From Candidatus Hydrogenedens sp. (GTDB taxonomy: Bacteria > Hydrogenedentota > Hydrogenedentia > Hydrogenedentales > JAEUWI01), in NCBI GenBank assembly GCA_016125095.1, contig WGMK01000010.1:438149-502148 (forward strand): 64,000 bases of DNA. Direction: 5' to 3'. Every line of letters starts with the position of its first letter. The stretch's first letter is position 1. This document shows, piece after piece, positions 1 through 31,138 of the stretch. Position numbers and translations under genes: made by a program. Under the pieces are notes generated by a model that saw nothing but the letters and a program-made list of their open reading frames with translations, searched no databases and was not told the origin of the DNA.

Positions 1-108
1 CGCCGGGGTGGAGGAGTAGGTAGCCCCCTTCCTGCGCATGGCCCGGTGTAAAGTCGACCCGCCCTGCTGGAGCTTTGCTATACTACAGGGCTGGAGGCGA
101 AGTTCCGG

Positions 109-681
109 ATGAACCGATGTGCCTGGTGTCTGCAGGGCGATGAGCAGTATGTACGCTACCACGATGAAGAGTGGGGCGTGCCGGTGCATGACGACCGCAA
201 GCAGTTCGAGTTCTTGATGCTGGAAGGCGCGCAGGCCGGGCTGAGTTGGGCCACGGTGTTGAAGAAGCGCGAGAACTACCGGAAGGCATTCGCCGATTGG
301 GACTGGGAGAAGGTGGCGCGGTTCACGCCGGCGCGGCTGGAAAAGCTGCTGCTGGATCCGGGGATCATCCGGAACCGGCTGAAGGTGGAATCGGCGGTGA
401 AGAACGCGCGGGCGTTTATCGCCGTGCGCGAAGAGTTCGGCACTTTCGACGCCTATATCTGGCGTTTCGTGGACGGGCGCCCGAAGCGGAATGCCTGGCG
501 CGCGATGAAGGAGATACCGGCGACGACGACGGAGTCGGACGCGCTGAGCAAGGACCTGAAGAAGCGCGGGTTCAAGTTCGTGGGAAGCACGATTGTGTAT
601 GCCCACATGCAGGCGACGGGGATGGTGAATGACCATACGGTGGATTGTTACCGCCACCGCGAGGTGGCGAAGCTGAAATAA
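109..681 (+). CDS. tag: DNA-3-methyladenine glycosylase I
   Basis: The 190 aa product aligns along its full length with E. coli Tag (YHDEEWGVP, EGAQAGLSW, RENYRKAF, GFKFVGSTIVYA.MQA.G.VNDH). Confidence 0.9.
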   Translation: MNRCAWCLQGDEQYVRYHDEEWGVPVHDDRKQFEFLMLEGAQAGLSWATVLKKRENYRKAFADWDWEKVARFTPARLEKLLLDPGIIRNRLKVESAVKNARAFIAVREEFGTFDAYIWRFVDGRPKRNAWRAMKEIPATTTESDALSKDLKKRGFKFVGSTIVYAHMQATGMVNDHTVDCYRHREVAKLK

Positions 682-735
682 CGCGGACCGCGGCCGCACG
701 GCGCGCGGGCGAGGCACGATACCGGAGTAGAAACG

Positions 736-2148
736 ATGGCGAAGAACATTTACGAGAAGATCTGGGACGCGCATGTGGTGGCGCAGCCCGAGGGCCAGTC
801 GGCGATTCTTTATATCGACCGGCACTACGTGCACGAGGTGACCTCGCCGCAGGCCTTCGAGGGCCTCCGCCTGGCCGGCCGCAAGCTCCGCCGCCCGGAG
901 CTGACCTACGCCACGATGGACCACAACATCCCCACGACGGACCGCAGCCTCCCCATCCGCGATGCGCTTTCGAAGCAGCAGGTGGAAACCCTCAAGGCCA
1001 ACTGCGATGAATTCGGCGTGACCTGTTTCGACATGCACGACCGCCGCAACGGCATCGTGCACGTGGTGGGGCCCGAGCAGGGCCTGACCGAGCCGGGCAT
1101 GACGATTGTGTGCGGCGATTCGCACACCTCGACCCACGGCGCCTTCGGCGCGCTCGCCTTCGGCATTGGCACCAGCGAAGTGGAGCACGTGCTCGCCACG
1201 CAGACGCTTTTGCAGAACAAGTCGAAGACGATGGAGGTGCGCGTCGAGGGCGAACTCCCCACCGGCATCACCGCCAAGGACATCGTGCTCGCCATCATCG
1301 GCAAGATCGGCACCGCCGGCGGCACGGGCTACGTCATCGAATACACCGGCGAAGCCATCCGCGGCCTCAGCATGGAAGGCCGGATGACCGTGTGCAACAT
1401 GAGCATCGAGGGCGGCGCGCGCGCAGGCCTCATTTCGCCCGATGAAAAGACCTTCGCCTACCTCGAGGGCCGTCCCTATTTGCAGAACGGCATCAGCCAT
1501 GCCGACCGCGTGGCGAAGTGGAAGACCTTCGCCAGCGACCCCGGCTGCACCTACGACGCGACCGTGGTGCTGCAGGCCAGCGAAATCGAGCCGCAGGTGA
1601 CCTGGGGCACGTCGCCCGGCATGGTAACCGGCGTAAGCGGCCGCGCGCCCAAACTGGACGAGGCGCGCGACGACAGCGAGCGCAAGACCTACAAGAACGC
1701 CCTCGAGTACATGGGCCTCAGCGAAGGTCAGGCCATCCAGGACATCACCATCAACAAGATGTTCTTCGGCTCCTGCACCAACGGCCGCCTCGAAGACCTG
1801 CAAGCCGCCGCCAAGGTGGTGAAGGGCCACAAGGTGAACCCGTCCATCGAACAGGCGCTCGTCGTGCCCGGCAGCCACGAAGTGAAAGAACAGGCCGAAG
1901 CGCTCGGCCTCGACCAGATCTTCAAGGACGCGGGCTTCGAATGGCGCGAGGCCGGCTGCTCCATGTGCCTCGCCATGAACGACGACAAGCTCAACCCCGG
2001 CGACCGTTGCGCCTCCACCTCGAACCGCAACTTCGAAGGCCGCCAGGGCAAAGGCGGACGCACCCACCTCGTCAGCCCCGCCATGGCCGTCGCCGCCGCC
2101 ATCAAGGGCCACTTCGTCGACATCCGCGACTGGGAGTTTAAGGCCTAG
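736..2148 (+). CDS. leuC: 3-isopropylmalate dehydratase large subunit
   Basis: 470 aa; the N-terminus [15 protein letters not shown] and the aconitase-family Fe-S ligand region ([28 protein letters not shown]) are typical of LeuC. Confidence 0.93.
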
Positions 2149-2171
2149 ACCATCCAATAGACGCTTCCAAA

Positions 2172-2206
2172 CCGCCGCGGTCCGCAAGGGTCGCGGCGTT
2201 TTTTAC
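2172..2206 (+). terminator. putative rho-independent terminator downstream of leuC
   Basis: GC stem cgccgcg...cgcggcg followed by the T-run ttttttac, immediately after the leuC stop. Confidence 0.45.
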
Positions 2207-2271
2207 TTTGGGCTTCGCTAGCGAGGACTTCCTCGATCTCCGGGAGGAATCTCCGATTCAATATGCCCTGG

Positions 2272-2301
2272 TTGACAAAGTTTGCCAACTAGGATGATAC
2301 T
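2272..2301 (+). promoter_or_regulatory. putative sigma70 promoter with palindromic operator upstream of parD
   Basis: TTGACA, a 17-18 nt spacer and GATACT. The near-palindrome gttgacaaa-g-tttgccaac overlaps the -35 element. RBS AGGAGA lies 7 nt before the parD ATG. Confidence 0.4.
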
Positions 2302-2322
2302 AACGCTGTAAGGAGAAATCCG

Positions 2323-2607
2323 ATGCCGACACAGAATGTGAATCTTACCGCGCATCAGAGCAAGTTCATCCAGCGGGTGGTCGAACAGGGGGCCTACAAC
2401 AACGCCAGCGAGGTCGTTCGCGACGCGCTGCGCTTGTTAGAACAGCGGCATCAAGAGGACTTGCTCAAACTGGAGCACCTGCGCGTGATCGCCAAAGAGG
2501 CATTCGACGCTCTGGACCGCGGCGAGGGCGTCAGTATTCCGCTGGATGAAGTGGGGGCATACCTGGCACGCTTGAAGGACGAGGCGCTTGGGCGCACACG
2601 CGTGTGA
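2323..2607 (+). CDS. parD: type II antitoxin, ParD/RHH family
   Basis: 94 aa; the ParD-like N-terminus (NVNLTAHQSKFIQRVVEQGAYNNASEVVRDALRLLEQ) fits a ribbon-helix-helix antitoxin. Its stop overlaps the downstream toxin start (GTGA). Confidence 0.8.
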   Translation: MPTQNVNLTAHQSKFIQRVVEQGAYNNASEVVRDALRLLEQRHQEDLLKLEHLRVIAKEAFDALDRGEGVSIPLDEVGAYLARLKDEALGRTRV

Positions 2608-2942
2608 GACGAGTTGTCCGGTTTTCATCCGCTGCTTCGGGAGACATCAAATCGGTCTTCGCATGGACCCTTGAGCACTTCGGGCCAGCGCAAGTAGACC
2701 GCTATGAAGACTTGATAAAGTTGGCGGTGCTTGAAATTTCCATGCATCCTGATGGGCCGATAGCACGGAAGCATCCCTTGATTCATCCCGATGCCCGCAT
2801 CATTCATCTATCGCGTTCGGGAATGCCTGCAAGCCATTTTATGCTCTTCCGACATACGGAGGACGGCTCAATCGAAGTGGGGCGGCTCCTGCATGACAAC
2901 ATGAACCTACCCATGGGTTTGCCAGAGGAATTTCGCCGGTGA
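2604..2942 (+). CDS. parE: type II toxin, ParE/RelE family
   Basis: 112 aa; small basic protein translationally coupled to parD. The ParE-like core (RFSSAASGDI...LIKLAVLEIS..P..G) is present. Confidence 0.75.
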   Translation: MRRVVRFSSAASGDIKSVFAWTLEHFGPAQVDRYEDLIKLAVLEISMHPDGPIARKHPLIHPDARIIHLSRSGMPASHFMLFRHTEDGSIEVGRLLHDNMNLPMGLPEEFRR

Positions 2943-3223
2943 AGGGTGTCCGAGACCGGGCGATCTTCTGACTGACGGTCTCCACAATATATCCCGCAAA
3001 TCAACCCGAAGATTGGAGACCCTCGGTCAATGGAGTGGAGCGGTCGGCAAACCTCGCCTGAGCGTGATTCTCTTGCGCCATCTAGGTGCCTGCAATAAAG
3101 TTTCTGGCGTGCCGTTTAGATACGCGCGACGAGTGGAATCTTGGCACACCAGTCCTTATTATTGCGGGATAGTGGTTAGTCTATTGCAGCGCACTATCGC
3201 GCCGATCTTCGGGGAGGGAAGGG

Positions 3224-3958
3224 ATGTCTGAGGAAATCTTGCCGGTGAATCCGCAAGAGCGGGTAATACGATTCATGTTGCCGCCCGCGGCCACTGGCTC
3301 TCCGCTTCGAACGGTATGGTTCTCACCCTACGCGACCGGGCTGCGGATTCGTGAAAAGGCGAGCATGCCGGAGGTGGCGATCATATTGTGCCTCCTGCCG
3401 GGCGTTGCTGCGGCGGCTGCCGCGTTCTCGAGCATGGGTTTTGGGGGCGCTTCCGGCGGACTCGCCATCGGGCTTGCGGTCGGCGCGTTCTTCTCGGCGC
3501 TCCTAGTCGAGCTGGTAGCCTTGGCCCCCTACGCCTTTATCGCGCACCTCTTGCAGGCTGGCATGAAAGGTACGTCGAATTTCTGGACGACCTTTACGGC
3601 TTGCGTGTTCGGCATGCTTCCCTTGCTCTTTGCGGCCATATTCATGATTGCCGCGACGGGACTCATGGGTAGGTTTGCCGGGTTACGAGTCATGGACAGT
3701 TATGCGGCAGATCCCTATATGGCATTTCTGCCATTCTTTGGCGGGCTTCTGACCGTTCCCGTGTTCTTGATCGCATCCATTTGGAACCTCGTGGCCCTCT
3801 CCAATACCCTTGCCGGTGCGGCCCAGTTGCCCCCTTGGACGGGGTTTGGTATCTATACCGGTAGCTACGCGTTGGCCGCGTTCCTGCTTCCCTTCATTTT
3901 GCCGTTGCTGATGTTTCTTCCGTTCTTGTCGATGCTGCCGATGATGGCCCAATTCTAA
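3224..3958 (+). CDS. multi-pass membrane protein (5-6 TM), unknown family; paralog of 4067..4789
   Basis: 244 aa, very hydrophobic. A cytoplasmic N-terminus carries the motif VWFSPYATGLRIRE, which is shared with the downstream paralog. Confidence 0.6.
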   Translation: MSEEILPVNPQERVIRFMLPPAATGSPLRTVWFSPYATGLRIREKASMPEVAIILCLLPGVAAAAAAFSSMGFGGASGGLAIGLAVGAFFSALLVELVALAPYAFIAHLLQAGMKGTSNFWTTFTACVFGMLPLLFAAIFMIAATGLMGRFAGLRVMDSYAADPYMAFLPFFGGLLTVPVFLIASIWNLVALSNTLAGAAQLPPWTGFGIYTGSYALAAFLLPFILPLLMFLPFLSMLPMMAQF

Positions 3959-4066
3959 CCGCCAGCGGCGTTCAGGATTAGACGGGCCGCCGCCTTCGGC
4001 CGGGAGCACGATCTTTGCGATTGTGGTCTAGGCGCGGAGGGCTGCGGAACGGAGTGAGGTTGTCGA

Positions 4067-4789
4067 TTGCCCGAAGACGCGCCAAAGAGTTCCGCCGAAA
4101 CGGCAGAGACCCCTAGCCGATATTGGCCTATCGTGGGGCTTTGGTTCGAGCCCTACAAGACGGGGCTTCGGCTGCGCAGCGTGGGTAGCGTGCCGTTTGC
4201 GGCGCTCGTCTTCGTCCTGGATCTTATCGTCTTGGCGGCTCCGCTGGTGCTGGTTTTGTCGTTCGCCTATCGTGAGCTCGAATATAGCAGGCTCGGGCAT
4301 ACGGGTCCGGTTGCCATCTCGACGCTGCCTCTCGGAGGGATACTAATTGCAGCGATTGTTATGGCAATCGCCTCCATCGATCTCCTGCAACGTCTGCTTG
4401 GTGGTGTCGGCAGCCTTCGCAGCGTCTTTATGGCGATCACCTACGGGATACTGCCGGCGCCGACCTGGGCGTGCATCGCGGCGGTGTGGCTGATGGGGAT
4501 GCATCTCCAAGATAAGTGGTATCTTGAAGAACATCCTGAAGTGCGCATGATTCGGGAAGATATGCCAATGGCCGGGGCAGTAGTGGTCTTTAATTTTCTT
4601 ACGCTTTGGGCGCCGCTATTCGCCTTCATCGGGCTGGCTTCTACCGCCATCACATCGACGCAACTCCTTCGCGGCGTGACCGGGTTGCGCATGCCGTGGG
4701 TGCTCACGATGATGGGGGTGGGGGCGTTGTTGGCCCTGGGAGTCGTCGTGTTGAGCCTCCAGTATGCCGTGATTCCCATCGAACGCTAG
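4067..4789 (+). CDS. multi-pass membrane protein, paralog of 3224..3958
   Basis: 240 aa, with a TTG start per the ORF track. The N-terminal motif LWFEPYKTGLRLRS matches the upstream paralog, and there are 5-6 TM helices. Confidence 0.55.
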   Translation: MPEDAPKSSAETAETPSRYWPIVGLWFEPYKTGLRLRSVGSVPFAALVFVLDLIVLAAPLVLVLSFAYRELEYSRLGHTGPVAISTLPLGGILIAAIVMAIASIDLLQRLLGGVGSLRSVFMAITYGILPAPTWACIAAVWLMGMHLQDKWYLEEHPEVRMIREDMPMAGAVVVFNFLTLWAPLFAFIGLASTAITSTQLLRGVTGLRMPWVLTMMGVGALLALGVVVLSLQYAVIPIER

Positions 4790-4897
4790 ATACGCGGTCG
4801 TCGAAATGGGAATGCAGGTGGGCCGCGGCCCGCCTACAAGTGCGCTTATTCCGGTGTAGGGCTGACAGGCGGGTCTGGTAGGGCTTATACTGAGACG

Positions 4898-5320
4898 GTG
4901 AAAGACGGCTTTCCCCCGAAATCAAAAGCCTCCACTTGGAAGAAGGAAATCGGTTTCGCCGTGAGCAACACCGCGCGACAGACGTCCATCGAATCCGGCC
5001 AGATAACGGCACTGGTGAAGGCCGCGGTGCTCGGCATCGCGCCGGACGCGGAGGTGTATCTCTACGGCTCCCGCGCGCGGGGCGATTTTCAGCCGGACTC
5101 GGATTGGGATTTTCTCGTGCTGTGTGATGAGGGTGAGCGCCGCGAAGTGAGAGAGAAAGTCCGGAGCGCCGTGCATGAGGTCGTCTTTGAGGTCGGTGCC
5201 GCTTGCGGGACATGGCACAGCATTTCGACGATTGTGCATTCGCGCGACCATTGGCTGCGCCCCCTGATTCAAGCCACTCCGTTTCACCGTGAAGTCTCTC
5301 GTGACGGTATCGCATTGTGA
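4898..5320 (+). CDS. minimal Pol-beta-type nucleotidyltransferase (MNT/SMODS-like)
   Basis: 140 aa; the motif [22 protein letters not shown] matches GS-x9-DxD of the Pol-beta NTase superfamily. The size is typical of minimal NTases. Confidence 0.7.
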   Translation: MKDGFPPKSKASTWKKEIGFAVSNTARQTSIESGQITALVKAAVLGIAPDAEVYLYGSRARGDFQPDSDWDFLVLCDEGERREVREKVRSAVHEVVFEVGAACGTWHSISTIVHSRDHWLRPLIQATPFHREVSRDGIAL

Positions 5321-5524
5321 GCCCCGAGGAGCACAACGTCGCAGGCCAAAGGCGGAAGCCTTTGTAGCAGAGGTCGGCGACTTGGTGAGACGGTTGAAGT
5401 AATTTTCACACTCGTGCAGGAACTTGATGGGCAGGTGCGTTTACTCCGGTGTTGGTGCAATCAGGTCCGCGCTATCTGTGAGGTATTATTTTGGCCATGG
5501 AACCGAAGGAGACATTAGCCCGTC

Positions 5525-6385
5525 GTGAGTGATTTTGTACGAGGTTCGCTAGCCAGTACGCATGCAATTCCGTCGTTGGTAAAGGTGGCAGTACAAAAGC
5601 TCATACCGGATGCGGACGTATACTTGATTGGTTCCCGTGCTCGGGGAGATTTCGAGTCAAATTCCAATTGGGATTTTCTGGTGCTAACGCCCCGTGTTCT
5701 CGACTGCGACGAACTGGAAATACTCGAAGCCGCGATTTCTGACGCAGCGTCTGACTGGCGCCTGACTGCGAACGAGTGGCACGAGATCGATCCCAAGGTG
5801 TATTCGAATGAATACTGGAGCCGTACTGCTGTAAGGATGACGCCATTTCATCGGTGGATTTCCAATGAGGCGATCCACGTATCAGATGGTCTTCCGCTCA
5901 GTGAGGCTTTTCCAGCAGGAGCCCCCTTGCCGGAGCCGTTGCCGGGATCGGAACTTTCGCCGGTGGAGAAGTTGCTGGCAAGGCGGTGGGCAGAACGTGC
6001 ACTCCGAACCGCCCGTTATCTCGAAATGCAGTGCGACGAATCTAACTCGCCCTGCGCGATCGAGGTCGGGAGCTACGCATTCTTTGAGTTAAAGCGCGCG
6101 CTGTTGCATACCGACAGAATTCGTTTCTGCCGGGATGCCCTGAGATGGGAAAGCGCTGCCGAGAGGTATCTCGACTCCGGCATCGTTTCTCCGGAAAGCG
6201 CGAGCGTTTTCCGCGCCATTTACGAGGCGAGTGATGAGGGTACGGTCGATCTTGGAGGAGTAGTCTATGATGGACGCGCCCCCCGATTAGTGCGGTTGGT
6301 GCGGGCCGCAGTCGATGAAGTCGCCGCAATTGTATATAATAGGACGCCTCCGCCGTGGGCGGACCCCGAAGAACTCAAGGAATAA
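5525..6385 (+). CDS. Pol-beta-type nucleotidyltransferase paralog with a ~170 aa C-terminal extension; catalytic DxD replaced by NxD
   Basis: 286 aa; [22 protein letters not shown] is paralogous to the upstream NTase but has N-S-N-W-D in place of D-S-D-W-D. It ends 4 nt before the leuD ATG. Confidence 0.7.
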
Positions 6386-6389
6386 GACG

Positions 6390-6992
6390 ATGCAGAAGTT
6401 TACGACGTTGGAAGGCGTGGCGGTGCCGCTTGAGGCGCAGAACGTGGATACGGACCAGATCATCCCGAAGCAGTTCCTGAAGCGGATCGAGCGGACGGGG
6501 TATGAGGACATGCTGTTCTTCGACTGGCGCTACCAGGAAGACGGCGTGACGCCGAATCCGGAGTTCGAGCCGAACCAGCCGCGCTATCAGGGCGCCTCGA
6601 TTCTACTCACGCTGGACAATTTCGGCTGCGGGTCGAGCCGCGAGCATGCCCCGTGGGCGCTGGACAACTACGGCATCCGCTGCATCATGGCCCCGAGCTA
6701 TGCCGACATCTTCTACAACAACTGCTTCAACAACGGCATGCTTCCCATCGTGTTGCCGGGCGACGTGGTGCGCGGGCTGATCGCGGACTGCCGCGCGGCC
6801 GAGGGCTACACGCTTTCGGTGGACCTGCCCTCGCAGACGATTACGAAGCCGGACGGCGGCACGATTCCCTTCGAGCTCGACGGCTTCCTGAAGGAGCGCC
6901 TGCTCAACGGCTGGGATCAGGTCGGGCTGACGCTCCTGCACGAGGACAAGATCGCGGCCTACGAAGCGGCGCGCGGCATGGCGGCCGTATAG
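6390..6992 (+). CDS. leuD: 3-isopropylmalate dehydratase small subunit
   Basis: [37 protein letters not shown] is the canonical LeuD N-terminus. The ORF-track start at 6315 is probably too far upstream. Confidence 0.9.
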
Positions 6993-7003
6993 GGAGCCCG
7001 GCG

Positions 7004-7303
7004 ATGCCGAACTACACCTATCAGGTTATCCACGAGGACGGCAGCGAGGGGGAGTACTTCGAGTACACCCAGCGCATGAGCGAGCCGCCGCTGACCGAGC
7101 ACCCCGACACCGGCGAGAAGGTGGTGCGCGTGTTCAGCGTGCCGCACATCGCCGGCACGGCGAACGAGCGCATCCAGAAGCAGATCATGCACGACAAGAA
7201 TCTGGACCGCCTGGGTTTCACCAAATACGTGAAGAACGGCAAGGGCCAGTACGAGAAACACGTCGGCGACAGCAAGGCCCCGGACACGCTGTCGGCCGAT
7301 TGA
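7004..7303 (+). CDS. FmdB-family (zinc-ribbon regulatory protein) homolog lacking the Cys ligands
   Basis: MPNYTYQ...FEYTQRMSEPPLTEHPDTGEKVVRVFS aligns with the FmdB consensus MPIYEYRC..CGHRFEVLQKMSD.PLTACPECGGEVRRLIS. All four Cys positions are substituted (V/H/T etc.). Confidence 0.55.
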   Translation: MPNYTYQVIHEDGSEGEYFEYTQRMSEPPLTEHPDTGEKVVRVFSVPHIAGTANERIQKQIMHDKNLDRLGFTKYVKNGKGQYEKHVGDSKAPDTLSAD

Positions 7304-7330
7304 TGCGCGTTCTCGCGCCAAAAGGCCAAC

Positions 7331-7352
7331 GTGGCTCGCGGGTACGCTCGCC
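7331..7352 (+). repeat. dispersed copy of the motif gtggctcgcgggtacgctcgcc between convergent genes
   Basis: Identical 22-mer to the terminal motif of the 57-bp inverted elements at 38459-38515 (reverse) and 38776-38832. Confidence 0.45.
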
Positions 7353-7358
7353 CTCCCG

Positions 7359-8336
7359 TCAGACCTTCACGTAGATGTTGTTGCGCTTGAGGTAGAGCGC
7401 GACGACGTAGCAGACCGTGTAAAAGGCGGCGAAGGAAAGCAGGGCCCAGGCGGCGCTGGCGCTTTCGTCTACCAGGAACGCGCCGTGCAGGCCGATGAGC
7501 GCGTATTGCAGCACGTAGAGCACCAGCGGATTCGAGCCGAGGGTCGTCAGGTGGGGCAGCTGGATGCGGGCGCGGTCGCAAAGCAGGTGGAACGCGGCAT
7601 AGGCCAGGAACGCCATCCCCGTCGAGAGCAGCGCGTAGGGCGAGGTCATGTAGTACTGGCTCTGCGGCCAATGCGGCTTGATGCCGGGCCACGTCGCCTC
7701 GAGTCCCCAGCCCAGGGCGCACAGGCCCAGGCCCCATCCGAAGAGTCCCAGCGCCACGCGGCGCGCGTCGGGGCGTTCCGCGATATCCTGGCAGAGCGTG
7801 CCGAAGAGCAGGATACCGGCCCAGCTGAGAATGCCCAGCGGTCCGCCATTGAAGCTGTTGTGCATCACCCATTCGCCGTAGGGCGTGAGGCTGAAGACGG
7901 CTTGATACGCGCCGATACAGCCGAAGGCGGCCAGCGCCCGGGCGCGGGTGCCCAGCGCGATGAAGGGCAGCGCCACGAGGCCGCCCGCGCCGATATCCAC
8001 CAGCGCGTCCCACCAGTTCTCATAGTCGATCGGGTTGTAGAGCACGATGCCGATGAGCACGAGGATAGCGTAGCGTCGCGCGGCCGAGCCCAGCGCGCCG
8101 AGCAGGCCCATCGCTTCCACGCGCCGCCGCAGCGAAAGCCGGAAGCCCATGCCCACCACGAAGATGAACGCGGGCGCGATGGTGTCGGCGTAGCTGAAGC
8201 CTTCGCGGTGGTGCTTGAACTGCCACGGCATCACCTCGAACTGCCCCAGGAAATTCACAAGGATCATGCCGAAGATGGCATAGCCCCGGAACTGGTCGAT
8301 AGAGGCGATGCGGCGCGGGGGAGACGTCGCTTCCAC
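7359..8336 (-). CDS. DUF1624/DUF5009 membrane acyltransferase-like protein (heparan-alpha-glucosaminide N-acetyltransferase-like)
   Basis: 325 aa; the motif DQFRGYAIFGMILVNF with multiple TM helices is typical of this family. Confidence 0.65.
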   Translation of the reverse strand: MEATSPPRRIASIDQFRGYAIFGMILVNFLGQFEVMPWQFKHHREGFSYADTIAPAFIFVVGMGFRLSLRRRVEAMGLLGALGSAARRYAILVLIGIVLYNPIDYENWWDALVDIGAGGLVALPFIALGTRARALAAFGCIGAYQAVFSLTPYGEWVMHNSFNGGPLGILSWAGILLFGTLCQDIAERPDARRVALGLFGWGLGLCALGWGLEATWPGIKPHWPQSQYYMTSPYALLSTGMAFLAYAAFHLLCDRARIQLPHLTTLGSNPLVLYVLQYALIGLHGAFLVDESASAAWALLSFAAFYTVCYVVALYLKRNNIYVKV

Positions 8337-8343
8337 GCCGGGG

Positions 8344-9765
8344 CTACTTCTTCTTGGGGCGGTAGATGTGGGTGGCCGTGCCGAAGATGGAACCGGCCGC
8401 CTCCATGAGCGCCTCGCTCAGCGTGGGGTGCGCATGGATGGTCAGGTCGATATCGCTGGCGGTGGCGCCCATTTCGATGGCGAGCGTGGCCTCGGCGATG
8501 AGTTCGCCCGCGCCGGCCCCCGTGATACCCACGCCCAGCACTTGGTGCGTGTCGGGATCGCTGATGATCTTGGTCACGCCCTCGGTACGGTTCAGCGTGG
8601 TGGCGCGTCCCGAGGCAGCCCAGGGGAACCGCGCCACGTCGACCTTGCGGCCAGCCTTTTTGGCCTCGCCCTCGGTAATACCGACCCACGCGATTTCCGG
8701 ATCGGTAAACACGACGCAGGGAATGGCTTGCGGCTCGAAGGCCGCGTTGTGTCCCGCGATGACTTCCGCCGCCACGCGGCCCTCGTGCGAGGCCTTGTGG
8801 GCGAGCGCCGGGCCTTCCACGATATCGCCGATGGCGAAGATGTTGGGGTCCGACGTGCGGCGCTGAATATCCACCTCGACAAAGCCGCGGTCGTTCACCT
8901 TCACCTTGGTGTTGTCTAGCCCGAGGCCGCTCGAGTTCGGCTTGCGGCCGATGCAGATGAGTACCTTGTCGAACACACGCTTGGGCTTCTTGATGCCCTC
9001 GCCCTCCAGCGTCACCTTGAGCCCGTTCTTCTGGTGCTCCATGTTCGTGACCTTGGTGTTCAGCAGGATCTCCTCGAAAATGCCCTCGACGCGCTTGGCC
9101 AGCGGACGCACAAGATCGCGGTCGCAGCCGGGCAGCAGGCCGTCGGTCGCTTCCACCATCGTGATCTTCGATCCCAGCGCGGCGTAGACCGTGCCGAGTT
9201 CGAGGCCGATATAGCCGCCGCCGACCACCAGCAGGTTCTCGGGCACGTCGTCCAGGCGGAGCGCGCCGGTGCTGTTCATGATGTAGGGCGACTGGATAAG
9301 CGGCGGCAGCAGTGTGGGCCGCGAGCCCGCCGCGAGGATGCTCTGCTGAAACTTGACGATCGTGGTGGCGCCGCCGACGGCGGTCACGCTGATGGTCTTC
9401 GAGTCGTCATAGGCGCCTCGGCCGCGTACGAAGCGGACGCCGCGCGCCTTGCAGAGCTGGCCCAGGCCGCCGGTCATCTGCTGCACCACTTCCTTCGTGG
9501 CGGCGCGCACGCGGTCTACGTCGATTTCCGGCTCGGCGAATTTCACGCCGAAGTGCGCGGCCTCGCGCGCGGCGGTAATCACATGCGCCACGTGCAGCAT
9601 CGCCTTCGAGGGGATGCAGCCCTTGTACAGGCAGGTGCCGCCGGGATTCTCCTCCGTGTCGATCAGCGTCACATCGAGGCCCAGATCGGCCGCCATGAAC
9701 GCGGCCGCATAGCCCCCGGGGCCGCCGCCCAATACCGCTACCTGTGTTTCAATCGTCTCGCTCAT
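8344..9765 (-). CDS. lpdA: dihydrolipoyl dehydrogenase (E3)
   Basis: 473 aa; FAD motif VLGGGPGGY, redox-active disulfide GGTCLYKGCIPSK and the C-terminal HAHPTLSE motif are present. Confidence 0.92.
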   Translation of the reverse strand: MSETIETQVAVLGGGPGGYAAAFMAADLGLDVTLIDTEENPGGTCLYKGCIPSKAMLHVAHVITAAREAAHFGVKFAEPEIDVDRVRAATKEVVQQMTGGLGQLCKARGVRFVRGRGAYDDSKTISVTAVGGATTIVKFQQSILAAGSRPTLLPPLIQSPYIMNSTGALRLDDVPENLLVVGGGYIGLELGTVYAALGSKITMVEATDGLLPGCDRDLVRPLAKRVEGIFEEILLNTKVTNMEHQKNGLKVTLEGEGIKKPKRVFDKVLICIGRKPNSSGLGLDNTKVKVNDRGFVEVDIQRRTSDPNIFAIGDIVEGPALAHKASHEGRVAAEVIAGHNAAFEPQAIPCVVFTDPEIAWVGITEGEAKKAGRKVDVARFPWAASGRATTLNRTEGVTKIISDPDTHQVLGVGITGAGAGELIAEATLAIEMGATASDIDLTIHAHPTLSEALMEAAGSIFGTATHIYRPKKK

Positions 9766-24932: not shown

Positions 24933-26873
24933 TTACGACTCAGTCGAAGCCTGCTGCAATTCGCGGTCTTCGCTGTTCGCAAGCGAGGGCGTTTTCTGCG
25001 CCCAGTCGCGATACTTGGGGGGAAGGTCGCCGAACACGTCGGAGGCCATCCAGTTGTACTTGCCTTCCATCATCGCCTTCGCCACCTTGTTGTAGTCCGA
25101 ATTGTGGTTGTGCTTGACCTTGCGGAAGTGGTCTTCGATGCGCTCGCGGGCGCCCTTGCACCACAGGTCGGCCAGTTCCACCGGCGTCTTGTCCTTCGGG
25201 TTCTTGTCGAGCAGCTGCTCGGCCTTCGCCAGGCAGCAGCCCATCACGAACAGGTCCACGCCGATTTCCACAAAGTGGCTCAGGAGGATCTGTTCGAACT
25301 CGAGCTTCGGACCGAACTTGGCCATGGTGTGGAAGAGCGAGCGGGCCAGACGCTTGCTGGTGCGCGCCGCATAGGCCAGGTGTTCCTGGCAGGCGCCGTC
25401 GAGGTGCTTCACGTTGAAGTCGGTGCTCGAGGGCATGTACAGCGACGGGTACCAGGTGGAGTAGAACTTGAAGGCGTTCCAGATGAGCGAAAGCTTGCTC
25501 TCCTTCTGGCCCGGCTTCGGCATCATCAGCGGCATCACCAGCTTGAAGTGCGTGTCCATGGCTTCGCGCGCCATGATCAGGTGCATCACTTCGCTGGAGC
25601 CCTCGAAGATGCGGCCCACGCGGCCGTCGCGTGCGAAACGATTCACCGGCATCGGGCGCTCGCCGCGGTTGTAGAGCGAGGTGTCGGTTTCGAAGCCGCG
25701 GCCGCCGCGCACCTGGATCAGTTCATCCAGCACACGGTGCGAAGTCTCGGTGCAGAAATACTTGGCCGCGGCGGCTTCCAGGCGGATATCGGCATTCGCG
25801 CGGTCGGCGAAGCTGCACGCCAGGTAAACAAGCGCGTCCATCGCGAAGATGTCGGCCACCATGCCGGCGATCTTCTTGGAGATGGACTGGTGACGGCCGA
25901 TCGGCACGCCCCACTGCACGCGCGAGGTGACCCAGTCCTGGATGGGCTCGATGAGGCCGGCCAGGGTGCCGGTGCTGGCCGCGGGAATGCCCAGGCGGCC
26001 GGCGTTCAGCGTGGTGAGCGCGATCTTGAGACCCATGCCCGGCTTGCCGATCATGTTCTCGGCGGGCACCTTCACGTTCGTGAACTTGATCAGGCCGTTG
26101 CTCAGGCCGTGCAGGCCCATGAAGTTGCAGCGGTGCAGCAGCTCGACGCCTTCGCTCTCGGTTTCTACCACGAAGGTCGAGATCTGCTTGATTTCCTTGC
26201 CGTTCTTCTGCAGCGGCGGGGTCTGCGCCATCACCACCATCAGCTTCGAATCGGGGCCGTTGGTGCACCACAGCTTCGTGCCGTTGATGAGGTAGTGGCT
26301 GCCGTCTTCCGTCGGCGTCGCCGAGGTGGACATCTTGGCCGGGTCCGAACCCACATCCGGCTCGGTCAGTGCGAAGGCGCTGATTTCGCCCGCGGCCAGG
26401 CGCGGCAGGAACTTCTGCTTCTGTTCCTTGGTACCGAACAGCTTGAGCGGCTGCGGCACGCCGATCGACTGGTGCGCCGATACATACGTAACCGTGGTCT
26501 GGCAGTAGCTGCCCATGAAACGCAGCAGGCGGGCGTAGTTCCACTGGGTCAGGCCCAGGCCGCCGTATTCCTTGCTGATCTTCATGCCGAAGAGGCCGAT
26601 CTTCGCCAAGCCGTCGAGCGTGGCCTGCGGGAACACGCCCGTCTCGTCCAGGAGGATCGGGTCGTGCTGTTCCATCACCTCGCGCGTCTTCTCAATCAGC
26701 TCATCGCCGATGCGCTTGTCTTCCGGATCCTGCTCGGGATACGGGTGCAGCAGGTCCCAGCGGAAGTTTCCGCGGAACATTTCGGCGGTGAAACTCGGGA
26801 ACTTCCATTCCGTTTCACGCGCAGACTCGGCCATTTCCATGGCGGCATCTTTGGCGGCATTGTTTTCAGCCAT
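24933..26873 (-). CDS. acyl-CoA dehydrogenase, long FadE-like form
   Basis: 646 aa; ACAD N-terminal, middle and C-terminal domain signatures (FGMKISKEYGG, TEPDVGSD, YLINGTKLWCTNG, IFEGSSEV). Confidence 0.85.
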   Translation of the reverse strand: MAENNAAKDAAMEMAESARETEWKFPSFTAEMFRGNFRWDLLHPYPEQDPEDKRIGDELIEKTREVMEQHDPILLDETGVFPQATLDGLAKIGLFGMKISKEYGGLGLTQWNYARLLRFMGSYCQTTVTYVSAHQSIGVPQPLKLFGTKEQKQKFLPRLAAGEISAFALTEPDVGSDPAKMSTSATPTEDGSHYLINGTKLWCTNGPDSKLMVVMAQTPPLQKNGKEIKQISTFVVETESEGVELLHRCNFMGLHGLSNGLIKFTNVKVPAENMIGKPGMGLKIALTTLNAGRLGIPAASTGTLAGLIEPIQDWVTSRVQWGVPIGRHQSISKKIAGMVADIFAMDALVYLACSFADRANADIRLEAAAAKYFCTETSHRVLDELIQVRGGRGFETDTSLYNRGERPMPVNRFARDGRVGRIFEGSSEVMHLIMAREAMDTHFKLVMPLMMPKPGQKESKLSLIWNAFKFYSTWYPSLYMPSSTDFNVKHLDGACQEHLAYAARTSKRLARSLFHTMAKFGPKLEFEQILLSHFVEIGVDLFVMGCCLAKAEQLLDKNPKDKTPVELADLWCKGARERIEDHFRKVKHNHNSDYNKVAKAMMEGKYNWMASDVFGDLPPKYRDWAQKTPSLANSEDRELQQASTES

Positions 26874-27156
26874 GACACACCTCTCTTAGGGTTGCGGTTG
26901 AGTACCGGTTTTTCTGCTACCTAACGACCGGTAGGTATTCTAACACGCAGGCAATCATCGGTCAAGCAAAACCTGCGCAAGCCACACAGGCAACAGCCAT
27001 TAGACCTGCCATAAAGACACCCGGTTCCAAGGCGGCTATTCCGGAGGGGTATGCATCGCAGCTCAGCGCCATAATTCGTATAATTATTAGCCGTGCGATT
27101 GACCGAGAGCCCGAGGGGGAGTAGGGTAGAGCATCGACAACGGAGGTACCAGAACC

Positions 27157-27417
27157 ATGACCGAAGCCGACCGGGCCGATTTCAGCAGCACCGACTACGA
27201 CCATCTGGCCCCGGGCATGAGTTACGGCGAGGTGGCCTCCCGCCTGAACGGCGAGGGCCTGCTGCTCTCCAACAACGTGGCCCAGCTCGAACCCGGTTTC
27301 TGGCTCTGCAGCATGACCACCCAAGTCTACGAATGGCACAACGCCGAAGGCGCGATCATCCGCGTCATGTTCGGCGACGACGGCCTGCGCGACAAATCGC
27401 AGTGCGGCCTGGGGTGA
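27157..27417 (+). CDS. small hypothetical protein (BamE/SmpA_OmlA-like fold suspected)
   Basis: 86 aa; GGAGG RBS 9 nt upstream. PGMSYGEVASRLNGEG and the C-terminal RVMFGDDG resemble the BamE-like fold. Its 3' end lies within a 47-bp direct repeat. Confidence 0.5.
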   Translation: MTEADRADFSSTDYDHLAPGMSYGEVASRLNGEGLLLSNNVAQLEPGFWLCSMTTQVYEWHNAEGAIIRVMFGDDGLRDKSQCGLG

Positions 27418-27422
27418 GGGGG
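27376..27422 (+). repeat. left copy of 47-bp direct repeat (1 mismatch to the copy at 28604..28650)
   Basis: gacgacggcctgcgcgacaaatcgcagtgcGgcctggggtgaggggg. Confidence 0.8.
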
Positions 27423-27491
27423 CCCTGGGGGCGCGGTTCGACGCGCTGGGTGTGATGAGTGTGGGAACACAACAAGTGGAGGAAGCGATAG

Positions 27492-28463
27492 ATGAACTTA
27501 TCCAATAAGTTGGATTTCGTCTTTGTTACGCTGATTACTGCGACCTTGGCGCTGTTGATTCCGCAGCCATGCGTGGCCAGCGGGCTGGGGGATGATAGAA
27601 ACGCGCAAATCGCAACAAACGAAATTGCAACTTCGGATGCCTCCACGTTTCCGCTTAACATTGCACAAGTGTCTCCAATCGACGCCCAGCGTGAATCCGG
27701 TGATGCCTATCCAGACTATTTTTTGAAGATGGTCCAGTATTGTTATGACATCCAGGGCCGCGTGGACCAAATAGGCGAATTGGAACGTGAATACTTGCGT
27801 CGGAGACTAAACGATCCGGAGATGCGGGAGTATTGGGGGTGTATGGCGGTCTTGCTTGCATTACATGATAGGTCGGAACAAACTGCTGAGGAGTTGCTAG
27901 CCTTCGTAATTAGGACCTACGGACCATGCGACGAGGATCGCGGTGACTTCAACTTGATGATGACGAAGGCTTGGGCAGTGACGATGTTGGGTTTTATAGA
28001 CTACCCGATAAGTCGGCAGGCACTGATGAGAATTGCGGCATCGATAAATGTCTCCAGTTTGTTTCAGAATTGGGAAGATGATGATTTTGTATCTGCAGTT
28101 GCTGCGTCGCCTTACTCGGCATTTCAAGATGTAATTCGCGGAGCAGCGTATAAGGGGCTTGCGATTATGGGGGGGCGTGAAAACAATGAATACTTGCGAA
28201 GCGAATTCGCTCGTATTAGAAGCGATCCGGGAGAGCTCTTATCCGGCGCCGGGCCTATGCTAAAAGGGCATGTGTATTTGTTAAAGGAGGCTCTGGCAAT
28301 CGCGGATTTTGTGGTGGATTCTGGTACGGATGCATATGTAAAGGTCTTGAGCAGCAAGGATGAATGGGGTAAAGTGTATAATAAGTATTCTCCAAGATAC
28401 GATATACCGGATGAGGAGAGAGAATCTAAAATGAAGCAGCTGGCCGAGGAGAGGGCTAAGTAG
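27492..28463 (+). CDS. secreted hypothetical protein encoded on a low-GC insert
   Basis: 323 aa; signal peptide MNLSNKLDFVFVTLITATLALLIPQPCVA. GC content is much lower than in flanking DNA. Confidence 0.6.
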   Translation: MNLSNKLDFVFVTLITATLALLIPQPCVASGLGDDRNAQIATNEIATSDASTFPLNIAQVSPIDAQRESGDAYPDYFLKMVQYCYDIQGRVDQIGELEREYLRRRLNDPEMREYWGCMAVLLALHDRSEQTAEELLAFVIRTYGPCDEDRGDFNLMMTKAWAVTMLGFIDYPISRQALMRIAASINVSSLFQNWEDDDFVSAVAASPYSAFQDVIRGAAYKGLAIMGGRENNEYLRSEFARIRSDPGELLSGAGPMLKGHVYLLKEALAIADFVVDSGTDAYVKVLSSKDEWGKVYNKYSPRYDIPDEERESKMKQLAEERAK

Positions 28464-28603
28464 ATCTTTGGATACTGTCTCGCGTGATACTTGAAGCATC
28501 GGAAAAATTCAGGCCTCAGGTAAGGGGGCTCTGTGTTTTTTTGTCTATGCTGCCTGCCTGTTTTCGACTTGGCTTTTCATGTTTTGTGGTCGTTGCTACC
28601 TCT

Positions 28604-28650
28604 GACGACGGCCTGCGCGACAAATCGCAGTGCAGCCTGGGGTGAGGGGG
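28604..28650 (+). repeat. right copy of 47-bp direct repeat
   Basis: gacgacggcctgcgcgacaaatcgcagtgcAgcctggggtgaggggg. Confidence 0.8.
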
Positions 28651-28664
28651 AGATACGACTAGGT

Positions 28665-30155
28665 CTACTGTACAGAAACGAGTACCTGCTCGAGGCTTTC
28701 GGCGACGGTGTCGGCCATGGATTCGAGGGCGGGGAGGCGCATGTGGCACATGTCCATGAAGTACGGGATGCCTCCGCGCACGTTTTCGGCGACGGGAATA
28801 TAGATCGCGCCTTCCGCCTCGCAGAACCGCTTGAGTTCGTCGTTGCACAGGTCGACCACCTTGCCGTAGCTGAGGCTGTCGAGGTCGGTGCATCGCGGGT
28901 CGAATCTGGTGTAGAGGATGTAGTCGGGTTCGGATGTGTCGAGGGTGGGGTAGGCGAAGCTGGCGAAAGCGACCCGGGCGCCGGCGGAGCGGCAGGCCTC
29001 GAGCGTCGCCTTGAAATTGTCCAGGGTCGCATCGCGATACCCGCGGCGGATGGCCTCTTTGCCGGGCAGCAGCCAGGCATTGAAGTGCAGCCGCACGAAG
29101 GTAGAGCGCGCGAGGAAGGCCTTGATAAGGTCCGTAATCGACGCCCCGTACCAGCCGCGGTGGCTTGGCAGGAAGTCGTTGATGAAATTGTATTGGACGA
29201 CGATGTCGGGCTGCAGGGCGAGGATGTCGGGCAGGAGCTTGCGCACGGTATCGCTGCCCGCGGCGTATACCCCGCAATTCACCACCTCGATACGGTCGTC
29301 GCCCAGGGCGGTGCGCAGACGCTGCTCGGTCAGGTTGGGGTAGGTCAGGTCGCCGCGAGGTCCGCCTGCGGTGGTCGAGCCGCCGATACAGACGATGCGG
29401 CGCACGCCGTCCGGCTTGGGCACTTCCATGGGGTCGTCGCGCCAGCCTTGGGCGTTGGTGCGCAGCCGGGTGGGGGCGCCCCATTGTTCAAGCGGATTGG
29501 TCACATCGATATTCGCACGGTAGCGGAGCCCGAATTGTTCCCACAGGCTGAGACCGACGCGCAAGGGGAGCGTGCCGCTCGCATGGTCCACCGTGCCGAT
29601 ATGCCATTCGCTGAGGCACGATGAGCCATCCGGCAGGGACAGATTGTAAAATCGCGCCGGGGCGGCGTTTCCTTGCCTTGCCGATTCCAGCGCAGAGTGG
29701 AAGTCTGCCGCCTCGGCCGGATTGAGCAGCGAAAGCACCGATTCGTCCGGCCGCACGCGTTCGGCTGTGGTCGCAAGCTTTTCGTCGGAGTGTCGGTCGG
29801 GCGGAAAGCTTGCGTGTATTACGCCGGCCGCATCCACCCGCACCAGCCAATACCCCGTGCGGCCGGCCAGAGCCGCACACGCTGCGTCATCCCCCGAATT
29901 CAACACGGCCTCCCATGCGGCAGCGTCTTTGTCAGGTTCTGGCGCCGCCGACGGATCGGGGATCCCCGACACCCGCTGCAGGTCCCGCGCGCGTGCTTCC
30001 TCCGCGAGGGGAGTGCCGTAGGCGATTGCCTGTTCCCGCACCTGCGGCAGTTCCATGCGCGCCCAGAGTTCCAACGCCAGGCACGCGACAACCGCCACGC
30101 CCAGGGCGCTTGCCACGTAGAAGCATACGATTCCCGCTCGCCGTACTATCCGCAT
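28665..30155 (-). CDS. membrane-anchored SGNH/GDSL-family hydrolase-like protein
   Basis: 496 aa; an N-terminal TM helix, and a C-terminal region (RRIVCIGGSTTAGG...DIVVQYNFINDF) that resembles SGNH hydrolases. Confidence 0.55.
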   Translation of the reverse strand: MRIVRRAGIVCFYVASALGVAVVACLALELWARMELPQVREQAIAYGTPLAEEARARDLQRVSGIPDPSAAPEPDKDAAAWEAVLNSGDDAACAALAGRTGYWLVRVDAAGVIHASFPPDRHSDEKLATTAERVRPDESVLSLLNPAEAADFHSALESARQGNAAPARFYNLSLPDGSSCLSEWHIGTVDHASGTLPLRVGLSLWEQFGLRYRANIDVTNPLEQWGAPTRLRTNAQGWRDDPMEVPKPDGVRRIVCIGGSTTAGGPRGDLTYPNLTEQRLRTALGDDRIEVVNCGVYAAGSDTVRKLLPDILALQPDIVVQYNFINDFLPSHRGWYGASITDLIKAFLARSTFVRLHFNAWLLPGKEAIRRGYRDATLDNFKATLEACRSAGARVAFASFAYPTLDTSEPDYILYTRFDPRCTDLDSLSYGKVVDLCNDELKRFCEAEGAIYIPVAENVRGGIPYFMDMCHMRLPALESMADTVAESLEQVLVSVQ

Positions 30156-30220
30156 GGCCGGGATGATAGCAGCTACAGTGTGGATGCGGGGTAGCCCGCG
30201 TCGGGGCTAACCCGATGCCA

Positions 30221-30270
30221 ACGCGCCAAGGAGGTCGCCGCGCTTCGCTCGCGATAACGAGGTTGGGTGG
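30221..30270 (+). repeat. partial dispersed copy (~80% identity) of the right arm of the 38.5 kb repeat unit
   Basis: acgcgccaaggaggtcgccgcgcttcgctcgcgataacgaggttgggtgg compared with the unit segment caaagaggttgccgcgctccgctcgcaatgacgatgttggcgg. Confidence 0.4.
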
Positions 30271-30412
30271 CTGAGGCTCCGAGACAAGGCCTATCGAGTA
30301 CGATCAAACGCATCCGGTATCGCCCTTGCGAGGAGTGAGTCTTCGAGCGACGCCGCAATCTCTCTGGCGCGCGGGCGTAGGTACCAGCCGGGTCAAACCC
30401 AGTGCAGTGGAA

Positions 30413-30985
30413 TCAGTCCTCGATCAGGATGAACCGAGTGGTTGCGGCAAAGAGATACCCCGTCGAGGAAATGCGCCGTTCCAACGGCAGGCACGTATCG
30501 GCGCAAAAGGTCCAGCGCGTCCGCGTACCGATGAAATACGACCGGAACCGCCGTTTTGGTTCACTGGTGCCCAGTAGGTATAGGGTCTGGCCTGCAGCCG
30601 TACGCCTTATCCTGCTGGAAAGTTTCGGATTCTCTCGAAGCGACTGAAAGAACACGGGCGACGGATAGTTGTCGCGATACTTTGTCAGCGGTTCCCGTTT
30701 CTTTTTCCCCGGGTCATCTCCGATTTGCATGCGCTTCGTCAGCGTTCGACCATTGCATTGGTACTCGATTCTCGTACGAAAACCGCTCCTGCCGTAACCC
30801 CGTGTGTCGTAATCCTCGACAGCCTCGTACCCCCATTTCTTTCCGTCGTTAAAGAACTCGAAAGTGCCGGTGCACTTCATCCACGGCGGCATTGCCCGCG
30901 TTTCAATGTGGAAACGATATCGGCACGGGCCGGTCCAGTGCGCTTCCAGTTGGTCGAGTATTTGTTCGGTAGAACGTGCTTGCAC
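30413..30985 (-). CDS. hypothetical protein, lower GC than surroundings
   Basis: 190 aa ORF with no signal peptide and no recognisable motifs; GC is about 54%. Confidence 0.45.
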   Translation of the reverse strand: MQARSTEQILDQLEAHWTGPCRYRFHIETRAMPPWMKCTGTFEFFNDGKKWGYEAVEDYDTRGYGRSGFRTRIEYQCNGRTLTKRMQIGDDPGKKKREPLTKYRDNYPSPVFFQSLRENPKLSSRIRRTAAGQTLYLLGTSEPKRRFRSYFIGTRTRWTFCADTCLPLERRISSTGYLFAATTRFILIED

Positions 30986-31138
30986 GAGACCTTTCCTCTA
31001 ACGCTGGCCGGCGGTTGCCCCTGCCTCGCTTTCCAACAATCCATTCAGCAGCCCGGATAGAACTCCGTCCTACGGCGGAAATTCGATGGCGGCGGTACCG
31101 GCCTTGCCGTTCCCGCCGCCATTGGTTTTTATTCCCGT

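Follow-up and report, generated by a model that had tools for sequence, protein, structure and literature searches.

A probable long-lived toxin-antitoxin spot between leuC and leuD in a Hydrogenedentota subclade

Why should the genes for the two subunits of one enzyme be held apart by toxin-antitoxin (TA) genes? In a 64-kb stretch of a Candidatus Hydrogenedens metagenome-assembled genome (MAG), referred to here as the window, leuC and leuD lie on either side of a 4241-nt spacer that contains six supported genes, all on the leuC/leuD strand, and one toxin relic. An earlier note on this DNA had described the spacer as a low-GC cassette, stabilized by addiction and gained by horizontal transfer. 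Genes of lower GC and foreign appearance, including a parDE pair, do split leuC from leuD. The idea of a horizontally transferred cassette unique to this genome did not survive, as orthologous pieces occupy the same site in relatives, hallmarks of mobility are missing, and the membrane proteins are orphans. We consider it likely that the leuC/leuD junction in one Hydrogenedentota subclade (LeuD identity of at least ~82%) is a long-lived chromosomal TA "spot," with an islet that is old and not recent.

Gene calls were taken from an open reading frame (ORF) listing together with Pfam and NCBIfam scans, and they bear out that same-strand genes part the end of leuC (2148) from the start of leuD (6390). 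Seven genes had been claimed for the spacer. The named ones, parD, parE, two transmembrane (TM) protein genes, and two nucleotidyltransferase genes, are all present, and the number falls to six, with a 72-aa ORF at 3013-3231 finding no support as a gene in the ORF listing or family scans. A seventh feature, absent from the earlier note, is the relic of a HEPN toxin gene at 5317-5402. The features of the locus are given below, where L-numbers, like P0008 further on, are labels of relatives' contigs compared with the window and MNT stands for minimal nucleotidyltransferase.

736..2148, + strand: leuC, 3-isopropylmalate dehydratase large subunit, left core flank (TIGR00170 777.7 bits, cutoff 560; PF00330 2.2e-180)
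2173..2204, + strand: intrinsic terminator after leuC, with an 11-bp stem (2173-2198, 9/11 pairs G-C), a GCAA loop, and TTTTTT; dG -21.6 kcal/mol
2272..2301, + strand: parD promoter-like site, TTGACA-N18-GATACT, 10/12 consensus matches, with a mirror match on the minus strand
2323..2607, + strand: parD antitoxin, 94 aa (PF03693 36.9 bits, cutoff 21; TIGR02606 59.7, cutoff 46.2)
2604..2942, + strand: parE toxin, 112 aa (PF05016 27.4 bits, cutoff 23, residues 5-101)
2943..3223, no strand: non-coding gap, 281 nt, with a 16-nt inverted repeat (2969-2984 / 3014-3029)
3224..3958, + strand: TM1, Yip1-domain membrane protein, 244 aa (PF04893 33.1 bits, cutoff 28.6)
4067..4789, + strand: TM2, Yip1-like membrane protein, 240 aa, orthologue of the L161/L163 gene
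4837..4860, + strand, and again at 5432-5455: ~20-nt element GTGCGCTTATTCCGGTGTA from a direct-repeat search, the first copy upstream of the MNT promoter and the second before NT2
4862..4891, + strand: MNT promoter-like site, CTGACA-N18-TATACT, from a promoter scan
4961..5320, + strand (ORF back to 4898): NT1, minimal nucleotidyltransferase of the MNT antitoxin type, 119 aa (PF01909, PF18765)
5317..5402, + strand: relic of the HEPN toxin gene partnering NT1, 86 nt, with a GTGA overlap with NT1 and ~90 central codons deleted
5525..6385, + strand: NT2, MNT::HEPN fusion, 286 aa (residues 1-119 at 42% to the L161 MNT, 142-286 at 38% to the L161 HEPN)
6311..6389, + strand: right-hand block of 79 nt, 88% in nucleotides to L161, made of the last 25 NT2 codons and the GGAATAAG leader
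6390..6992, + strand: leuD, small subunit, right core flank (TIGR00171 270.9 bits, cutoff 116; PF00694)

The informative relatives came from a search with the LeuD protein and a look-up of the encoding contigs. When genome and metagenome contigs were scanned with LeuC, no relative with downstream sequence that could be used exceeded 79% identity, and the contig at 91% (L081) is cut inside leuC. LeuD proteins 82-91% identical to that of the window belong to seven lineages, six of them occupied at the junction and one empty (67 nt), and seven distinct occupied configurations were counted at the leuC/leuD address. The contents of the site, ordered by LeuD identity and extended to two more distant contigs, are as follows.

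L161/L162, LeuD 91%: Yip1 (240 aa), MNT (118 aa), and HEPN (143 aa); upstream order tag-leuC
L163, LeuD 89%: Yip1, MNT, and HEPN
L168, LeuD 84%: MNT and HEPN
L164-167, LeuD 83%: ParD (94 aa), ParE (112 aa), DUF433, and a HEPN::MNT fusion
P0008 contig, LeuD 82%: ParD, ParE, and Yip1
L174/L175, LeuD 82%: ParD, DUF433, DUF5615/PIN, and a 262-aa membrane protein
L169-171, LeuD 82%: empty, 67-nt spacer
L176, LeuD 81%: empty, ~150-nt spacer
L172, LeuD 80%: 664-nt repeat array (7337-8000) duplicating the leuD 5' end

Wherever the contig of an occupied relative reaches them, leuC and leuD bound the insert, and the flanking synteny of the window is that of L161. The occupied lineages form one clade in a LeuD tree, and deeper Hydrogenedentota have a compact leuCD. 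The flanks of L169-171 are 92.5-96% identical in nucleotides to those of L165, so that these near-identical flanks frame a clean difference between presence and absence of the insert. Across the occupied lineages the same subfamilies, gene order, and promoters recur, which favors a single origin with differential loss over independent captures. The earlier note had expected leuC and leuD to be contiguous in relatives lacking the island, as they are in L169-171 and L176; six lineages are occupied at the same site. It had also named shared content of native composition as the sign against an island, and the relatives do share overlapping content, yet their spacers too are below their flanks in GC.

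Paired GC-rich hairpins, CGCCGCAGGAGCGGCG and ACACCGCAGAGCGGTGT, sit just upstream of leuD in L165 (2806-2910) and L168 (926-998). In L165 they recur inverted inside the insert (1784-2014), where a called "77-aa gene" is probably hairpin repeat. The empty site of L169 retains a degenerate hairpin copy, a hint that the site was emptied by deletion. The array in L172, the sister lineage, consists of REP-like repeats (translations IPAFAGMT and SRFRGNDG). At its start the ribosome-binding site and the first ~14 codons of leuD are duplicated, which would fit an insertion event within the 5' end of that gene.

Among the TA modules of the island, parDE is the only one that looks functional. As in other ParDE type II systems, a ribbon-helix-helix ParD precedes ParE in an antitoxin-first bicistron with its own promoter-like site, the two frames overlap by 4 nt (GTGA, 2604-2607), both products score above curated family cutoffs, and both genes are under purifying selection (dN/dS against L165 of 0.076 for parD and 0.18 for parE). 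The -35 hexamer lies in an imperfect palindrome, TTGACAAAGTTTGCCAA, a putative ParD operator, and the promoter hexamers are invariant after leuC in the window, L164/L165, and L174, with varying spacer bases. The pair differs from the known systems in being chromosomal and wedged right after leuC, and its toxicity and autoregulation are predictions. The parE product had no NCBIfam match. At the amino acid level, the same-site parD orthologue is 81% identical in L164-167 and 72% in L174, and parE is 70% identical to an orthologue of the same length in L164-167. Divergence from L164-167 is about the same for the pair and for leuC (82%) and leuD (83%). In the gap that follows parE (2943-3223), no significant relic of DUF433 or PIN and no Rfam match was found.

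The MNT-HEPN modules have been eroded in different ways. NT1 likely starts at the GTG at 4961 rather than at 4898, because of its alignment with the MNT genes of relatives. Its catalytic motif is intact (GSRARGD...SDWD), and it is 58-62% identical in amino acids to the MNT proteins of L161, L163, L165, and L168, with MNT proteins being 53-62% identical across five lineages. What is left of its toxin partner is a 5' piece of the first ~12 codons, VSPEEHNVAGQR, which matches MSPEEKTLARLR of the L161 and L168 HEPN and runs into a stop, and an out-of-frame 3' piece of the last 18 codons, PKAEAFVAEVGDLVRRLK plus its stop, which shares 72% identity across 18 aa with the C-terminal end of the L163 HEPN (E 2e-5). 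A short translated stretch at 5497-5532, overlapping the NT2 start, resembles the N-terminus of relatives' HEPN proteins (MSPEEKTLAR) at a non-significant level (E 0.66) and may be a second HEPN relic.

NT2 has kept its length and lost its motifs. Its N-terminal part shares 41% identity with NT1, and at the DNA level the two genes contain an 80-nt repeat whose copies are 73% identical. In the MNT part of NT2, the first catalytic Asp has become Asn (SNWD, aligned with SDLD in HI0073 and SDID in PDB 8xeh), and in the HEPN part, the motifs R..YY, KKH[SG]G (now CRDAL), and R..SDY, conserved in L161, L163, and L168, are all replaced. Pfam HEPN was not detected in NT2, and a database search with the protein returned only itself. 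These losses suggest that NT2 is probably catalytically dead in both domains. Its frame is still open over 286 codons, with a dN/dS of 0.34-0.53. An AlphaFold model from the single sequence (pLDDT 45.4) was too poor for a fold search and has an alpha/beta pattern followed by an all-helical one. L165 carries the reverse fusion, HEPN::MNT, likewise degenerate.

The canonical arrangement of MntA-HepT type VII TA systems, MNT then HEPN in overlapping frames, is found in L161, L163, and L168, with the L161 HEPN being of the UPF0332/AF0298 type, and NT1 itself retains GS...DxD. The window differs in that the partner toxin of NT1 is an 86-nt relic and NT2 is a single chain without the HEPN His/Arg motifs. 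Neither NT1 (32.6 bits) nor NT2 (19.3 bits) reaches the NCBIfam MntA equivalog cutoff of 60, and no separate intact HEPN toxin gene with the His motif was found in the island downstream of either. The HEPN relic and the motif losses of NT2 leave no more than one of the three TA modules as a likely active system. The description of the cassette as TA-stabilized can thus apply at most to parDE, as both MNT-HEPN modules are degenerate, one by internal deletion of the toxin and the other by fusion and loss of residues.

The two membrane proteins are distant paralogues (29% identity over 148 aa). TM2 has no Pfam Yip1 hit, and its 57%-identical L161 orthologue scores 29.6 against a cutoff of 28.6. 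The TM2 family had two matches among 5.8 billion proteins, and a Yip1-like profile run against 1.84 billion representatives recovered the window's own proteins and two weak matches only. Outside this locus, the Yip1-like family is essentially absent. The AlphaFold model of TM2, built on a three-sequence alignment, was too poor for a fold search (pLDDT 46.6), with a pattern of five long helices.

How, then, is leuD expressed behind such an insert? The terminator-like hairpin that the earlier note had seen right after leuC is well formed, and its position and structure are kept in L161, with an altered loop, a change from a U.G to a C-G pair, and a dG of -22.7. It is not present in L165, L174, or L169. 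In addition to the parD promoter, the hexamers of the MNT promoter (CTGACA-N18-TATAAT in relatives) are kept upstream of MNT in L161 and L163, again with varying spacer bases. The GTGCGCTTATTCCGGTGTA element is also found upstream of MNT in L161 (~9060-9080) and L163 (~390-410) and could be an operator or a transcript end. A TATAAT at 6335-6340, embedded in the 3' end of NT2, is without a convincing -35 and is absent from the promoter-scan output, and we treat it as tentative for these reasons.

At the right-hand end, the NT2 stop ends at 6385 and the leuD ATG stands at 6390, leaving the 4-nt gap that had been reported; the HEPN stop lies 5 nt from leuD in L161 and 10 nt in L163. The leuD leader, GGAATAAG, also precedes leuD at the empty site of L169 and is ancestral on that ground. 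Rfam models searched over positions 1-8000 at E <= 1 gave no match, and so no leader, T-box, or riboswitch is indicated. Judged from these arrangements, transcription of leuD probably depends on the conserved island promoters. The same dependence had been proposed in the earlier note and is a reasonable reading, given how tightly leuD abuts NT2 and that two promoter-like sites are conserved across lineages.

We propose the following history. An ancestral composite insert would have been laid down once, in the ancestor of the clade, with the layout parD promoter-parDE, DUF433-PIN, a Yip1-like gene, and MNT promoter-MNT-HEPN. Later reshuffling would have involved duplication, gene fusion, internal deletion, and deletion of the whole insert, probably joined by exchange between clade members, for which the conserved leuC and leuD would have provided the flanking sequence. 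The result in the window may be described as parDE with a promoter of the autoregulated type, two orphan TM paralogues, and two disarmed MNT-HEPN modules. Transcripts of leuC would end at the conserved terminator, and leuD would be read as the final island cistron, driven chiefly by the MNT promoter and perhaps also by the parD promoter. Its translation, beginning 4 nt past the NT2 stop, would use the ancestral Shine-Dalgarno region that belongs to leuD itself. ParE addiction may account for part of the island's retention, and the rest may come from leuD, which would lose its promoters if the island were deleted. With a terminator after leuC and promoters in the island, deletion of the islet would orphan leuD unless the terminator went too; the L165/L169 lineage, in which a clean loss is seen, has no terminator after leuC.

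A stronger version holds that the islet persists by having taken over leuD expression and not by toxin addiction; we regard this as possible and on balance doubtful. In it, the leuC transcript would now stop at a terminator, and leuD would be reached through a conserved promoter of the TA type and the MNT::HEPN frame, disarmed yet open. To the same doubtful degree, and as part of that version, the decayed TA modules might have been domesticated as a regulatory leader of an essential amino-acid gene.

Composition sets the spacer apart, as had been claimed. At a GC of 0.576 it is below the window (0.628), leuC (0.653), and leuD (0.637), and a sliding-window check placed it lowest of all stretches of 4241 nt across the 64 kb (mean 0.627, sd 0.020). 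GC at third codon positions (GC3) is lower too, at 0.57-0.75 in island genes, against 0.90 in leuC and leuD and 0.79 +/- 0.09 in background genes.

Such values are what a recent horizontal acquisition of a mobile, addiction-stabilized cassette by this genome would predict, and the presence of a TA pair and a synonymous divergence (dS) higher in the island than in the flanks point the same way. We nevertheless hold a recent import to be very unlikely, and the sequences of the relatives appear to have largely refuted it already, with six other lineages carrying orthologous pieces at this site in spacers that are also lower in GC. No integrase, transposase, or recombinase was found, all six island genes belonging to other families and the flanks being housekeeping genes; there is no tRNA in the 64 kb and no direct or inverted repeat, att-like or otherwise, flanking the island at its boundaries. 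Plasmid and phage comparisons matched only 75 nt of parD, to two Azospirillum plasmids, with no phage match. Beyond the clade, TM1, TM2, and NT2 lack homologues, and decay has already reached two of the three TA modules. An insertion hot spot that was struck over and over, each lineage capturing its content independently, is unlikely, though somewhat less so. Content does differ by lineage, the ~600-nt array of L172 was inserted at the leuD 5' end and duplicates the leuD start, unrelated small genes lie between leuC and leuD in other phyla, island dS is elevated, and repeated acquisition of TA modules at one locus has been reported (PMC13617665). The recurrence of subfamilies, promoters, and gene order argues against such repeated capture, as do a Yip1-like family that exists only at this locus, a parD and parE divergence that tracks that of the flanks, and the monophyly of the occupied lineages on LeuD.

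Alternatively, the island genes or their remnants might now control the leucine pathway and be kept for the benefit of the host, either because autoregulated TA promoters set the supply of LeuD or because the membrane proteins act with LeuCD. Points in favor are the terminator 3' of leuC, a conserved promoter that leads into leuD, the open 286-codon frame of NT2 despite its lost catalytic motifs (at the dN/dS given above), the conservation of its last 25 codons at the level of the flanks, and a membrane-protein gene kept beside leuD in five of the six occupied lineages (L161/L162, L163, the P0008 contig, L174/L175, and the window). We think such a function distinctly unlikely, since L169 and L176 manage without the insert, the content is too variable for a fixed role, Yip1, MNT, and HEPN proteins have no known link to leucine synthesis, and Rfam detected no leader or riboswitch. 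That a chimera of MAG assembly or binning made the junction is barely conceivable, even with the window coming from a MAG, as independent JGI, ENA, Logan, and NCBI assemblies show inserts at this junction with similarity continuous through both flanks; an assembly artefact was rejected on the agreement of these assemblies.

Several observations weigh against an old spot inherited within the clade. Similarity to L161 at 88% of nucleotides spans leuC and the terminator and then resumes abruptly at 6311. With that boundary, the C-terminal 25 residues of NT2 are nearly identical to the tail of the L161 HEPN and the rest of the domain is at most 38% identical, which suggests recombination. Between the window and L161, dS is 1.05-1.97 for island genes and 0.37-0.74 for eight housekeeping genes, a difference of about twofold, so that simple vertical co-inheritance is insufficient. 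Either weaker codon constraint or allele exchange or replacement within the clade through the conserved flanks could account for the high values. The relatives are all metagenome contigs, several of them short, and LeuD is for that reason the sole basis of the phylogeny. Promoters and terminator alike were recognized as matches to motifs, and the five promoter hits against 2.1 +/- 1.6 expected are not significant by count alone. Both the toxicity of ParE and the inactivity of NT2 are predictions. A second leuD elsewhere in the genome is possible, our view being limited to 64 kb. We still favor the long-lived spot, with single origin and differential loss.

A survey of 160 loci with a LeuC homologue, in which leuD was sought within 5.5 kb, gives a measure of how unusual the split is. 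leuD lies directly 3' of leuC in 85 of them, with a median spacer of 14 nt and a maximum of 950 nt, and a six-gene spacer of 4.2 kb is outside the surveyed range. The statement that the two genes are normally adjacent is right for those 85 loci; another 53, mostly of Rhizobiales, have no leuD within 5.5 kb, which makes adjacency common and not universal. Spacers of 260-950 nt in other bacteria hold a gene for a small membrane, secreted, or lipoprotein (L001, L005, L007, L008, L116, L126, L154, and L160). These are single small genes and none is a TA module, unlike the six genes over 4.2 kb in the window. Searches of the literature brought up no relevant report of TA modules at the leuC/leuD junction or in Hydrogenedentes.

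Some of these smaller inserts have features of their own. In L001 (2964-3239), L005 (1621-1974), and L007 (3150-3440), which are more distant MAGs labelled Nitrospirales with LeuC 73-78% identical, a common small two-helix membrane protein with the motif FPR.AL..MWL.GY..RAF.T.LWP.LGF.FMPYTTCAYA and no Pfam match is encoded between leuC and leuD. L001 has a DUF1232 gene in addition, and the membrane protein of L008, 128 aa long, is unrelated. In other phyla, L116 (11438+), L126 (4468+), L154 (11395+), and L160 (11392+) have a gene between leuC and leuD for a ~43-aa lipoprotein-like protein or a ~90-aa secreted Lys/Gly-rich repeat protein. The junction thus tolerates small inserts in several lineages.

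The leuC product is 92.6% identical in amino acids to that of L161. An exact look-up gave no match for either LeuC or LeuD of the window, and a database search then showed LeuD to be a 100% match to a Candidatus Hydrogenedens sp. MAG protein. A 3-methyladenine glycosylase gene (109-681) ends 55 nt upstream of leuC and a gene for a small Zn-ribbon protein (7007-7303) begins 14 nt past leuD, both syntenic in L161. The "operon" in the window comprises leuC and leuD only, with neither leuA nor leuB nearby. Elsewhere in the window, the second-lowest-GC stretch (26800-31100, 0.583) may be another accessory patch; it contains ORFs at 27492-28463 (323 aa, GC3 0.53) and 30413-30985 (190 aa), flanking a GDSL-lipase-like gene, and neither ORF has a Pfam match.

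The locus can be compared with chromosomal TA "spots," for which a model with loss by deletion or toxin-first pseudogenization has been put forward (Belot et al. 2026, Mol Biol Evol, PMC13617665). The shared features are several TA modules grouped within a short interval between conserved genes, heterogeneous content from one relative to the next, loss by deletion or toxin-first decay, and a TA presence that does not preserve the neighborhood. The window differs in that its address is between two subunit genes of one enzyme and leuD has apparently been captured by island transcription, and its spot has no recombinase or mobile element and persists clade-wide to a LeuD identity of ~82%. Core defence hotspots, as outlined by Johnson et al. 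(2023, NAR, PMC10250203), appear to share the fixed address between core genes and a cargo that varies from strain to strain or species to species. The cargo here differs from that outline in being TA modules and orphan membrane proteins, with no defence function indicated. A reading of the locus as a defence island was dropped, as PADLOC gave only weak MNT matches to the candidate family PDC-S09.

The usual picture of a chromosomal TA module is that of a selfish passenger, short-lived and lodged in an intergenic spot that tolerates it. The organisms considered here are uncultured, the regulatory claims are all drawn from sequence, and TA spots and their erosion have already been described in general. 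Here, a TA spot lies between two subunit genes that are normally ~14 nt apart and has lasted through substantial divergence of a clade. Toxins at this one locus have been eroded by internal deletion, by fusion in either order, and by loss of motifs, and these routes of disarmament can be compared with one another. If leuD has indeed been taken over by the islet, the stoichiometry of the LeuC and LeuD subunits would be tied to the autoregulation of TA promoters. If leuD is transcribed from island promoters, the locus would be a natural case of a selfish insert that is hard to delete, having become entangled with an essential gene.

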